Below are positions 37,601 to 43,600 of a stretch of DNA of 52,790 nucleotides, piece after piece. How positions within the stretch are numbered: the stretch's first letter is position 1; the number at the start of each line of letters is the position of its first letter. Origin of the DNA: a virus (Duplodnaviria; Heunggongvirae; Uroviricota; Caudoviricetes); IMG/VR virus record IMGVR_UViG_2534681742_000008, positions 1 through 52,790 of that record. One strand, 5' to 3'. The position numbers are program-made.

Positions 37601-40600
37601 GAGCATTACTACTCAGCAGGGGAGGTTGCAGAGCAGCTTGGAGTAACGGCCAACAAGATTGGTCGCATTGCTAACGCAAACAACCTAAAAACTGAGCAGT
37701 ACGGGAAGTTCTTCCTGGATAAATCGGCGCATTCCAGCAAACAGGTAGAGGCGTTCCGCTACAATTCTGAAGGCGTTAAAGCACTACAACACCTGCTACA
37801 TGGCTCAAATGTGGCGTAACATTTTATAATGAAAACTAAACCCGCTTAATCGCGGGTTTTTTCTTTCCTTAGAATTTCAGCCGCAACTTCTTTTACTCGT
37901 TCCGAGATTAATGAGGCCAGTCTCTCTTCTTCATCACGATACCCGCTTACAGGTGATGGTTTGGAGAGTGATTCTTCCATCGTAGCCACAATTTCGGAAT
38001 TGATAGACCAGTTATTCATTTTTGCACGCTGCTTAATCTTAGCGTGCAACTCGTGCGTAAGCCTCAAGTGGAACTGCGCCTCATCGTATTTGCTGTACAT
38101 CATCAATGCCTCACCAAATGGGTGGAATGGCATCGTAAAACCTACTGTACAAATCAACAATCGTACCGTTTCGGTATGTAACAAATGCCAACCGTAGCCA
38201 CGCTGCGGCGATTCCTTGCATCTGGAGCAAATTAAATGACAGATTCGATAAATGCCAATGTTGTAGTGAGTATGCCTTCTCAACTCTTCACTATGGCACG
38301 TTCTTTTAAAGCGGTTGCCAATGGCAAAATTTATATCGGTAAAATTGACACTGACCCGGTAAATCCTGAAAACCAGATTCAGGTTTATGTGGAGAACGAA
38401 GACGGCTCTCACGTTCCTGTTTCGCAACCAATCATCATTAACGCTGCTGGATATCCGGTATATAACGGACAGATTGCCAAATTCGTTACCGTGCAAGGCC
38501 ATTCTATGGCTGTTTATGATGCGTATGGGGTTCAGCAATTCTATTTCAACAACGTACTTAAATATGACCCAGATCAATTACGCCAGGAGCTGATAGGACC
38601 AAGGGCAGGTATGGCTGGGTTTGTAACAAGGGGACACCTGCTGTCCTCATTGATAACAGACAACACAATCTATCCTGGGCAAGCCTATAGGTGCACTGAT
38701 CGTGCGGATGGGATATTTGATGTGGTAAACAAGTCGTCTGTAACTACAAATGGATACAACATCGTTTCACACCAAACGCTTCCTTATGCATTCGTACTTC
38801 GCATAAACGGAAGAACTGTAGATATTGAGCAAATGGGTGCAAAACCAGATGGTAGCGAGGATATTCTTCCTATTCTAAATGCAGTCACGCAGATGTTTGT
38901 TTCTACTACAGGCGATGCCTATGACGCTGGATGCACCATCCTTTTAAAGGAGAATACTTACCTCTTATCATCATGGACAATGCCATCAATCTTCCAAAAC
39001 CTATCGTTAGTCGGTAACGGAGCAAAGATTAAATGTAAGGCATCAGGAACATACCCTCACCTGATAAAAACAGGATGGAACTTTCAAAACATTTCTGGTG
39101 TTGATATTGATGGAGCACTAAATGAAAACTACACATGCATCCTCAACATAAATAATGGCTATGGCAGGTATGAAAACATCACGATAAGAAACGCGAAGCT
39201 TCCTATTCGCGTTGGATTGCCTGGAACTAACCCTGTTAGCTTGTCTGAGTTCTACTTTGATAGGTTAGTGATAACTGGATGCGCAAAGATAGCTGAATGC
39301 ATTGGTTTATACAGTGTCTTGCAGATTTCAGATAGCGTACTTGCCTCTGGCGAAGGAACGAAATGGAAAAGTTACGATTGCACAGGACTGGCAACTTATG
39401 GAGGAAGGATATTTGTTAACAAGTGCACAATGAACTCAAATGTAGTAACTACGGATAGTCCATACATATATGTATCAAGCACTGTAGAGCAAGGAAATAC
39501 GTACTGTGGTCAAGTAAGCGTTGAGCAGAGCGATCTTGAGATGAGATCAAGAACGATACTTGTATATGACCAATCTACAAACTTCCAGAATACCCAGCAA
39601 AACATCAGGCTATCAAACTCACGTGTTAGCGTGTGGTTATCGCAGGAGCCGAGGGCTAAAACATTCTTCGAATCCAACGATGCATATAGAGGCCTTTTCT
39701 CGGTAACAAACTGTGATGTTATATTCGATCAGCCTTTGACAGAGAGACCAATAAAGGCAGGGAGTAGAACTCTTTGTAAGCTTGATTATTCATCGTTTAA
39801 CCATGTTGGTTATTATGGATCTAATCTTATTGAGTGGAGCGGATTCCCACCAATAGAAGAGTTTTCATTGAAAATGAAAGCCTCAATTACAAACAACCAA
39901 TCACTCGCTATAGGGCAGAACAAAATATCATATGATCAAACATTAAAAGATATCTATGGTACCGATCTCACGCTTAACAAGAAATTCAACGTAGGCCTTA
40001 ATAGATTTGAATGCCCCAATGGTGAAATAGAAAGTGTAGAGCTCGTAGTAAATTATCTATTCTCAGAAGCAGTTACCTCACCAGTTGAATGGAGGATAGA
40101 TGTATTTTTCTCTGGAAGCTCAACAACCACAACGATATGCAAGCACACCACGCCAACAGGTGTAACAGCAGGGTCATTCTGCGTTGCGCTACCAATGATA
40201 GATCAGAACTCTACAATAACAACCTATGCTACAACAAACGCAACCGCAACTCTGTTAGGAGGGAATGTCTTCAATAATACAATATCTTTATTATGTAAAA
40301 CTAAGAGACCAAGAGTGATCAGCTGACATACAATAAAAGGCCGGGAAATCCGGCCTCATATAAACATTACGCAGACTTATACTCTCGTATACGAGAAGTA
40401 AGCATGTCTCGTATATAGTTAGAGAGTCGAATTTCAATATAGTCACGTGAAAAGTGAGCCGTCAAAATGGTAGATGCAATAATCAACACTCCCATAAGCG
40501 GCCCTCCTGCATATTCCTCATGCCCGGACTTTATAAATATTATCTGAAGCATCTCTTTCACAAATGGATGTAAGAGATACACCGAAAAAGATATGCCCCC

Positions 40601-43600
40601 CAGATATGTCAAAGGCGCACAAACAAACCCAAACCTGCTCTCATATATCACGCAGACAAAGACAAGTGCAGCTGAGACAAGCCCCCACTGCAAGAATCCC
40701 CATCCAGCCCTAAATCCAGAGAAATACTGCCACGCAAAGGCTGTAACAACAGCGAAAACCAACCAGGTAAGCGATGATTTACTTACTTTGCTAAAATCAA
40801 CAAAATCTACCAACTTGGCAATCAATACCCCGGCAAGAAAATTTATAATGATAGGGTTTGTCACAAGGGACATATAGGCAACACTAAAACCATAATCAAC
40901 CTCTGTGACGAAGCTAAATGATGAAAAAATAGATGGTATTATGTAAAGAATAGTCATGAACGCTAAAGAGAAAACAGTCCACATCCATCTATTAAATGCA
41001 AGAGATACAGCAAATACAGCATAGAAGAACATCTCATAGTTCAATGTCCATCCAACAAAGAGAGACGATAACCCAAGATTCGGAGCGTTTCTGGCGTCAA
41101 GAGGATAAAACAGCAATGATTTTATTATGTCAGTATAATTATCGAATTCGTGAGCCGTGGGAACTGAATATTTAAGGACTATCAGCCATAGTATTGTCGC
41201 TATGAAATAAAGTGGATATACGCGTGAAAACCGCTTTATGATAAATAAGATTGACTCATGAACGCCTGTCCTATTGTGCGTATAGGTCATGACGAATCCA
41301 CTAATAATGAAAAATAAAGGCACGCCCATCCCACCATAAGAGAACAGTGCATCGCCAAAATTATAAAAAGGCATATTGAAATACACCTTAAAATGCACAA
41401 GAACAACCATTAAAGCGGCAATTCCTCTCAATGCCTGAATGGTATTAATTGTTCTCTTTGCGTCGTTAGAGTCATTGACCGACATCGCAACATCATCCCG
41501 TTTCGTATGCAATAAGTATTTTCTGCATTCTATCATGAGTTTTCGCGTTCTCTATGTTCAGTGACACATTTGTGATTGACGAGGCAAATCCGGATGAACT
41601 ACTGTATGCATGAACAGTATTTATCGGAGGTGCATTATGGGATTCCCGAGTCCAGCGCAAGATTTTGTTGAGCAACGAATTTCACTAGACCAGCGCATCA
41701 TAACCAGGTCAGCTGCTACGTATTTCATGCGAGCCGGGGCAACGCATTACAGGGAGGGCATCATCAGTGGTGCTCTGCTTGTTGTCGACGCATCGCTGAG
41801 GCCGTGTGACGGGTCATTGCTGGCTTGCAGAATGGAAGGTGATATGAGGATAAAGCGGTATCGTAATCATCCAAAGGCGCACCTGGAGGATTTGCAGACG
41901 GGAAGGCGTGAAGAGATACCTGTTCACGATGACGGCACAAGCCCGGATGCGATATTTGGGGTGATCACGTACACCATCAACGATGCTCGTTCTGGCGAGT
42001 TCGACGACTGCCCGGTGATGTGAGACAGAAATGGGACACACAAAGCTTTGCACTGGATTGCAAATATTTGTGCTCTTCTATGCTGAGTGGCTACATGTTT
42101 GAAGAGCGTTGTGCCGTATTTGTGACATACACATGACAACATCATGCATCAACTTTCTGTTTGTGCCATCAACTATTGCTTGGTGAATGCGGTTAATGCT
42201 TGCTAAAACAGATAGTTATGATTGGTGCTACAGATTCGTAATGCGAAGGTCGTAGGTTCGACTCCTATTATCGGCACCATCAAGAAAATCAATAACTTAG
42301 CTTAACTTCTCTAAGAAATTGTATCTTCTGTTATCACTTACAAACGCCTATACGTTGTTATGGGCTTTGGTAGTGTAACACGTATGGGCGAGTAGTTCCC
42401 AGGCTCAACCTCGTAACAAGTTCCTTTGAAGCTGGAAGACGTGCCACCGTCTCTAAACCTTCTACCAAAACTCTTAGCAAGATGTTCCACACCTGGCGCG
42501 GTGTCCAATGATGCTACACGTCGTGAGACGTTGCAGAGGATAAACAGGCTAAATGATGGGAAGAGTTTTAAGTGCAATAGTGGATCAAAGCCCACCTCTT
42601 CAAAACCTAACTTGATCGGGAAAGAATCAAGCTCTAGCACGGTTTCGTCCACCGGAGTACAACGGGTGCCTGATAAGAGAAGAACTGCTAAGACTTCATA
42701 GCTTTTGTGAAAAAGCCCTTTTTAGTGGATACGCCTACGGCGCTTATTTTTTGGTATAACCATCAAAGGCGCTTTATGGCTCCTATTGTCTTGAAAATGT
42801 ATCTTTACTTGTATTGTGTTTTATGCGTAGTCTCCCTGTGTAGTATGTAACTTGTTAATTTTCATATGAATACAGAGGCAACACGATGAAAAATATTGCA
42901 GCTATCAAACGTAATAACCGCAAGATTCACGCTCGTAAGTTCCTGTCTACGCCAGAAGGAAAAGCCTGGCTAGAGCGTAAACAGAGAGAGAACGAAGAAA
43001 GAAAACTCCTTAGTGAGTTGAAATGGCTTAAGGATTGAATCACCAGTAGGCGCATAACACATCCAGCGATCAAAGATGTGTTTATGCGCCTGATAGTGAA
43101 ATTATTAAAGTCGTTTAGTTAACATCGCCATTGCTTGAGCAATAATTGCAACAGCGTCCATCTCTTCACTGGAAGCGATGCAAATGCGGTAACTAATAGC
43201 CACAATGAATACATCAATAACGAGAAAGTGAATAGTGTGAAGATGTTTTGAAAGTAAATGCATAACTTCCTCCGGTTTTGGGATAGGAGGATTAGAACAT
43301 GCATTAAATGATGTTGCAAGAATGGCAATTTACCCTAATAGTCTACTATTCACCTCAATCTACGTCAACCAATATTTGATGTAGATTTAATTTTCTTTTA
43401 AAAACAATATGTTGTTATTTGTTGAATTTTGGGGTTAGGTTGTTTTTTGAACGTTTTCATCAAGTGTAAAGATACGTTTAGCCTTCATAGTGAGTTCAGT
43501 TACTGTCTTTTTCTCTGAAATCGGCGCAAACGTGATCATCGCTTGAGGTTGCTGCTCTTACTTCTCAAATTGTGATGGAGAACGATAAAGGTTAGAGGGC

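Follow-up and report, generated by a model that had tools for sequence, protein, structure and literature searches.

A candidate Oac-like acyltransferase and its neighboring tailspike receptor-binding domain in a P22-like prophage at thrW

Through O-acetylases, prophages alter the serotype, the vaccine epitopes and the phage susceptibility of Shigella and Salmonella. The gene oac of phage Sf6 encodes an experimentally established O-antigen acetylase, and the prophage-borne OafB protects against the tailspike of phage BTP1 (PMC9558356). Few prophage O-acetylases have been characterized in E. coli, one of them being Oac of ΦV10 (phiV10). Here, a gene for a membrane acyltransferase of the acyltransferase-3 (AT3) family was analyzed computationally in a DNA stretch of 52,790 nt, the IMG/VR virus record IMGVR_UViG_2534681742_000008 (Caudoviricetes), which is referred to in its full length as the window. 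The gene lies inside a 40.8-kb P22-like prophage at thrW, between the tailspike gene and the attachment site attR. On balance, its product is probably an Oac-like lysogenic-conversion enzyme which would acetylate the glycan bound by the adjacent tailspike, probably the O-antigen; this reading was reached by comparison of sequences and gene neighborhoods.

The initial annotation had placed the acyltransferase gene on the opposite strand at 40367-41485, and these coordinates are exactly those of the 372-amino-acid (aa) form of the open reading frame (ORF). The stop codon occupies 40367-40369 (-), and in-frame ATG codons are found at 41485 (372 aa) and 41536 (389 aa); the start of the 372-aa form is the one used in the RefSeq annotation of a near-identical gene of E. 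coli NCTC9066. The assignment to AT3 was borne out by a profile search, in which Acyl_transf_3 (PF01757) matched residues 16-341 over profile positions 4-319 of 326 with an E-value of 1.5e-29 and 103.6 bits against a cut-off of 31. This is the sole domain of the 372-aa protein in the Pfam scan, in which no SGNH domain was found, and the protein ends at residue 372. PHROG 3333, named ‘O-acetyltransferase’, matched with an E-value of 2.2e-64 (218.7 bits), and an NCBIfam scan returned no model which names the protein.

All three of the conserved AT3 motifs R-X10-H, RXXR and VxxFFxISGF (PMC9833829, PMC9558356) are intact. The R-X10-H motif, as defined in PMC9833829, is present as R20-GIAALMVVLV-H31, RXXR as R85-F-S-R88, and V-X-X-F-F-X-(I/V/L)-S-G-(F/W/Y), as defined in PMC9558356, as V55PLFFIISGF64. 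In published work the four residues of R-X10-H and RXXR proved essential, and an exchange of Ser to Leu in VxxFFxISGF abolished the activity of Lag1 (PMC9833829, PMC9558356). In an alignment of 49 sequences, comprising homologues down to ~28% identity, R20, H31 and R85 do not vary, and R88 is conserved in at least 90%; W146, E151, H306 and E351 are among the other conserved positions. The AlphaFold2 (AF2) model of the protein is confident and all-helical, with about ten long helices (pLDDT 91.2, pTM 0.90). A sequence search of the PDB gave no match to any solved AT3 structure. With the model as query, HGSNAT, a distant relative, was the only meaningful Foldseek match in the PDB (prob 0.93, TMq 0.37), and one match of AT3-SGNH size was obtained from a viral fold library. 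Judged from the predicted structure, the fold searches confirm the acyltransferase superfamily and add nothing beyond it.

The ratio of non-synonymous to synonymous substitutions (dN/dS) was 0.07-0.15 in pairwise comparisons with four close homologues, with dS up to ~1.1. Since these values are low and the motifs intact, the gene is taken to be under purifying selection, and it is no relic. Its GC content of 39.4% is 8.5 points lower than that of the prophage body (47.9%). Downstream of its stop codon, a terminator scan and the sequence itself point to a GC-rich hairpin at 40337..40357 (-), GGCCGG-aaat-CCGGCC, which continues into a T-run on the minus strand and is the predicted terminator of the acyltransferase gene. 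The gene is encoded opposite to the late operon, has its own hairpin terminator and is low in GC, hallmarks by which it can be classified as a putative ‘moron’.

The acyltransferase gene and the tailspike gene (38236..40326, +; 696 aa) are convergent, their stop codons lying 40 nt apart. As had been stated in the initial annotation, the acyltransferase gene is situated between the tailspike gene and attR; the gene humD (41637..42023), which follows before attR is reached, had been missed there. The tailspike has a P22-type N-terminus, the head-binding domain or virion adaptor (aa 1-114; 38236..38577, +), which matches Pfam Head_binding with an E-value of 1.9e-64. The remainder, aa 115-696 (38578..40326, +), is the receptor-binding domain (RBD), a near-orphan sequence with a predicted right-handed beta-helix glycanase fold, which also matches capsule depolymerases. 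On the basis of this fold prediction, the RBD should bind a glycan and probably cleaves it. Divergence of the RBD, suspected earlier from the sequence, is pronounced: it has no tblastn match in 50,697 phage records and no DNA match in 5,426 complete E. coli genomes, it forms only 8 clusters among 5.8 billion proteins, and a scan of the RBD by itself assigned it to no PHROG or Pfam family. Colanic acid was considered as the target of the tailspike and rejected. The match of the full tailspike to phrog_8280 (‘colanic acid degradation’) was lost when the RBD was scanned alone, hence the head-binding domain was its source.

Tailspike and acyltransferase are more closely linked than the window itself could show. 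Close copies of the RBD (89-96% identical) are joined to three different virion-attachment domains in phages of E. coli, of Enterobacter and from metagenomes. The genomes which carry the RBD are assemblies GCA_000164375.1, GCA_012531095.1, GCA_002190365.1 and GCA_002197975.1 and E. bugandensis CP141897. A metagenomic P22-like phage (L015) encodes a tailspike of 695 aa with Head_binding and an RBD 96% identical to that of the window. A prophage of Enterobacter bugandensis (CP141897; L014), which contains tape-measure, Dit-like and sheath-initiator genes, has a tailspike of 719 aa with Tail_spike_N and an RBD of 91% identity, and a tailspike of 843 aa, also with Tail_spike_N, was found beside a holin gene in a metagenome (L011; RBD 89% identical over 582 residues). 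In each of these three close copies, the acyltransferase gene is located directly downstream of the RBD, convergent and ~40 nt away, and the complete acyltransferase copies beside close RBDs are 86-100% identical to the window protein. From this arrangement, RBD and acyltransferase appear to move together as a cassette between phage types.

The acyltransferase gene has also been retained where most of the prophage is lost. In E. coli remnant prophages (loci L002, L006 and L007), ~36.9 kb corresponding to window positions 2301-39230 are deleted across an 8-nt overlap of the flanks. By this deletion, a truncated int has become joined to codon 336 of the tailspike gene, of whose product the C-terminal 361 aa are left. 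These remnants keep the acyltransferase gene intact, with no change in its protein sequence.

More distant homologues of the RBD (33-41% identical) were looked up in three of five cases; they are located beside a T7-like terminase gene, in an SU10-like contig and between large tail proteins. Around these three, no acyltransferase gene was present within 4 kb on each side, and no integration gene was seen in the stretches of the phage contigs viewed. The absence of the acyltransferase beside distant RBDs would fit a function needed only in lysogens. Homologues of the acyltransferase itself extend further. In a P22-like prophage of Xenorhabdus bovienii, a homologue of 43-44% identity follows a Head_binding tailspike in convergent orientation at the end of the prophage, and a homologue of 45% identity is flanked by the replication gene gpA and the portal gene in a P2-like prophage of Aeromonas rivipollensis (locus L107, 7001-8191). 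The latter places the acyltransferase lineage in accessory-gene positions of phages well beyond the Enterobacteriaceae. All lineage members of at least 43% identity whose loci were examined belong to a prophage or a phage-like contig.

If the acyltransferase acts as an Oac-like conversion enzyme, the following course can be proposed. We infer that the gene would be expressed from the prophage as a stand-alone AT3 lysogenic-conversion ‘moron’. The polytopic inner-membrane protein would take acetyl groups from cytoplasmic acetyl-CoA, as Sf6 Oac does, and acetyl-CoA would be bound by the motifs R20-X10-H31 and R85xxR88, which would line the AT3 pore. The acetyl group would cross the membrane and be attached to a hydroxyl group of a sugar in the polysaccharide which the tailspike binds and probably cleaves. 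This acceptor would most probably be the O-antigen repeat unit, because the P22-like phages used for comparison (Sf6, P22 and Kapi1) have the O-antigen as their receptor. The acetylated glycan would be a poor substrate for that tailspike, such that lysogens might resist superinfection by the same and related phages and virions, once released, would not be lost to the debris of lysogens. The surface antigen may change as well, which would amount to a change in serotype.

Several observations weigh against this reading or limit it. None of the experimentally studied homologues exceeds ~30% identity, and Sf6 Oac aligns with the window protein at 27% identity over the N-terminal 160 residues only (E 1e-7). 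AT3 proteins acylate many different acceptors (PMC9558356), thus membership in the family does not fix the substrate. The occurrence of RBD and acyltransferase at ~90% identity in both E. coli and Enterobacter could point to a common enterobacterial glycan instead of a strain-specific O-antigen. A σ70-like promoter candidate with extended -10 element (TAGAGA-16-TG-TAGAAT; 41527..41554, -) was found by a consensus scan, in which it scored 9 of 12 matches plus TG. It is the only candidate upstream of the acyltransferase gene and it is weak, promoter-like sites in this region being no more frequent than in shuffled sequences; if real, it would favor ATG 41485 as the start. Furthermore, this RBD is missing beside two copies of the same acyltransferase, those of E. 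coli NCTC9066 (98.7% DNA identity over window positions 40481-41662) and of Enterobacter asburiae (92% protein identity), hence the pairing is not obligatory. In both, the gene follows genes for a tail fiber and a tail-fiber-assembly protein, in prophages with baseplate genes.

Some of these points favor a different acceptor. The enzyme could be a lysogenic-conversion acetylase for which acceptor and tailspike receptor are a surface polysaccharide other than the O-antigen (for example a K capsule, the enterobacterial common antigen, colanic acid or a further exopolysaccharide); we hold this to be unlikely, yet it is the most serious of the alternatives. The nearest named homologues are annotated as ExoZ-like or ‘exopolysaccharide production protein’, the resemblance of the RBD fold to capsule depolymerases would suit such a target, and prophage acetyltransferases track capsule type in Klebsiella (PMC13123978). 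The close relationship of the gene pair in two genera would also suit a glycan common to both. However, Sf6, P22 and Kapi1, besides using the O-antigen as receptor, carry or cause O-antigen modification, and the sole hint in the sequence to colanic acid, the match to phrog_8280, stems from the head-binding domain and not from the RBD. Nor does the distribution over genera speak clearly for a common glycan, for identical O-antigens are shared across enterobacterial genera.

With considerably less probability, the acyltransferase modifies a part of the envelope unrelated to the receptor, for instance peptidoglycan, periplasmic glucans or the lipopolysaccharide core, and benefits the host (against lysozyme or serum, or in immune evasion) without excluding phages. 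AT3 enzymes perform all of these modifications in other bacteria (PMC9558356), and the gene is also found beside other tail fibers in the absence of this RBD. Against this stands the gene neighborhood: all homologues of at least 86% identity with examined loci adjoin a receptor-binding gene, in several phage architectures, as does one of the two examined homologues of 43-45% identity, the other being in a P2-like prophage away from tail genes. Peptidoglycan O-acetylases of the AT3 family, moreover, carry an SGNH domain (PMC9558356), which the window protein lacks according to its Pfam scan. That the gene is a passenger, inactive or not expressed, would agree with the lack of a promoter supported above background, but is very improbable given the intact ORF, the retention of all catalytic motifs, the dN/dS values and the preservation of the gene in the deleted remnant prophages. 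Both the receptor-independent function and the passenger status are disfavored by the gene-neighborhood pattern together with the selection data.

Returning to an Oac-like enzyme paired with its tailspike, the borders of the shared DNA indicate how the pair might be exchanged. Shared blocks end at 41613, 41618 or 41662, i.e., at or just past the LexA box in front of humD. The acyltransferase occurs in two C-terminal alleles which differ in the last ~38 codons, the tailspike-paired form ending in ...RLSNYIRDMLTSRIREYKSA and the tail-fiber-paired form in ...VWLSNKVRDFLLTRSMIAKIA. These two alleles imply that a recombination joint lies within the 3'-terminal part of the acyltransferase gene (window position 40481). 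Tentatively, and with less confidence than in the enzymatic role, we propose that RBD and acyltransferase form a portable two-gene cassette to ‘recognize and mask’ one uncharacterized enterobacterial glycan. It may be swapped as a unit between podovirus prophages of the P22-like kind and further temperate tailed phages which have different sets of tail genes, in E. coli and Enterobacter, with joints at the adaptor/RBD junction and at the humD LexA box, and the second joint in the acyltransferase 3' end might allow re-pairing with tail fibers. If this is true, the acyltransferase would stand for a new serotype factor based on O-acetyl groups, and the cassette would supply, ready-made, a glycan-specific depolymerase matched with the enzyme which blocks it.

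The acyltransferase gene by itself is an expected feature of a P22-like prophage and thus a new member of a well-known kind, albeit a rare one. Its DNA has no megablast match in the 50,697 phage records, in which the best protein-level match (tblastn) is ~31% identical. Only one of the 5,426 complete E. coli genomes, that of NCTC9066, contains it. Among 5.8 billion clustered proteins, three clusters exceed 85% identity and the next best has 49%; the relatives in IMG/VR (2.9 million contigs) and in the GTDB representative genomes all show 40% identity or less. What the locus adds is the pair. Together with the near-orphan beta-helix domain of the tailspike, the acyltransferase may offer a depolymerase and a blocking enzyme matched to one glycan, and the two would be a clear example of receptor-binding and receptor-masking functions exchanged as a unit across phage types and genera.

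On the other side of the acyltransferase gene and divergent from it, humD (41637..42023, +; 128 aa) encodes a UmuD'-like protein of the S24 family (NCBIfam NF051876, E 1.5e-62; phrog_811). Its ATG is preceded by a GGAGG ribosome-binding site. A LexA (SOS) box of perfect consensus, TACTGTATGCATGAACAGTA, is located directly before humD at 41600..41619 (+), ~45 nt upstream of the candidate -35 element of the acyltransferase gene; the window contains no other match, and 0.01 would be expected by chance. Judged from this position, the box most likely regulates humD only, and SOS control of the acyltransferase is not supported. Phase variation of the Dam/OxyR type, as in the Salmonella gtr and oafB operons, was also considered for the acyltransferase and rejected, since a sequence search upstream of the gene found no GATC in 41486-41640. 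The humD gene stands alone, its partner umuC being absent from the prophage. A UmuD-like gene past the acyltransferase, away from the receptor-binding gene, is also present in NCTC9066, E. bugandensis and E. asburiae. It is followed by a umuC fragment in E. bugandensis and is separated from the acyltransferase gene by ~2.2 kb with other genes in between in E. asburiae.

The ends of the prophage are defined by a 47-nt direct repeat of the 3' part of the single tRNA gene of the window, tRNA-Thr(CGU) or thrW (1369-1444). The copy attL is situated within thrW (1399..1445, +) and attR at 42234..42280 (+). A gene for a tyrosine integrase (1459..2619, -) adjoins attL. The left host flank from proA to thrW is 100% identical to E. 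coli chromosomes, and over 21 kb the window matches scaffold GG772870.1 of assembly GCA_000164375.1 with 100% identity. Just inside both prophage ends, at 1492-1511 and 42109-42128, a 20-nt direct repeat (TTGTGCCGTATTTGTGCCAT and ...GACAT) was noted, whose copies are candidate arm-type binding sites of the integrase. Ahead of the tailspike gene, the prophage carries P22-type injection proteins, sieA, a region of the arc/mnt type and two antirepressors. The antirepressor genes are arranged in tandem and encode a Bro-N/P22_AR_C protein (36280-37002) and a phrog_1726 protein (37040-37819). The sieA homologue (PF26849; 35053-35691, -) is found in a stretch of 36.7% GC beside the arc/mnt/ant immunity region; by its presence, the prophage would carry a second, independent superinfection-exclusion system. 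Beyond attR, at 45337-45475, five iteron-like repeats of 24 nt (CACCCTAACAGAAAACTGTTACCC) are spaced by 23-44 nt in an island of low GC content (34-38%). The larger ORFs scanned in this island gave no confident Pfam match and one weak, sub-threshold match to a helix-turn-helix domain. The island may be a second element integrated at thrW.

Compared with the described acetylases, the window protein shares its architecture with ExoZ, WecH and WbaK, which are stand-alone AT3 polysaccharide acetylases encoded chromosomally. According to the literature, their genes reside in chromosomal clusters for polysaccharide biosynthesis, whereas the examined members of the lineage of the window protein are phage-borne. 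Names of the ExoZ-like type are, however, given to many homologues of the window protein in databases. The Salmonella O-antigen acetylases OafA and OafB (BTP1 family II GtrC) have the AT3 domain, R-X10-H and RXXR in common with the window protein; in contrast to this AT3-only protein, they are of the AT3-SGNH type with an extra (11th) transmembrane helix and a periplasmic SGNH domain.

The initial annotation had recognized the locus as the one where P22-like phages keep genes for O-antigen modification, and this agrees with both phages used for comparison: oac of Sf6 and gtrCBA of P22 occupy the same position, convergent to the tailspike gene and with a hairpin terminator in between. In P22, tailspike gene 9 (+) is followed by the gtrC terminator, the convergent gtrCBA, attP and int. 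Modification of the receptor in lysogens is the presumed role of gtrABC and of the window gene alike. P22 achieves it through glucosylation by three Gtr proteins, whereas the window contains a single acyltransferase; no gtr genes are present between tailspike gene and attR, where only the AT3 gene and humD are found.

The layout of the window is identical to that of Sf6, in which tailspike gene 14 (+) is followed by an annotated ‘putative terminator for oac’ and the convergent oac. Sf6 Oac (OacA), an O-antigen 2-O-acetylase of rhamnose I, is likewise a single-domain AT3 protein, and phrog_3333 is the best PHROG for both (230.5 bits for Sf6 Oac, 218.7 bits for the window protein). The two differ in length (333 aa in Sf6, 372 aa in the window), in the gene beyond them (int in Sf6, humD in the window) and in the integration site, which is thrW in the window and argW for the Sf6-type attP according to the Kapi1 paper. 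Sf6 gp14 and the window tailspike are 89% identical over residues 1-120, but their RBDs are unrelated, hence the acceptor sugar is expected to differ. In terms of sequence and gene order, the window acyltransferase appears to be a positional and functional analogue of oac which belongs to the same broad family, not an orthologue.

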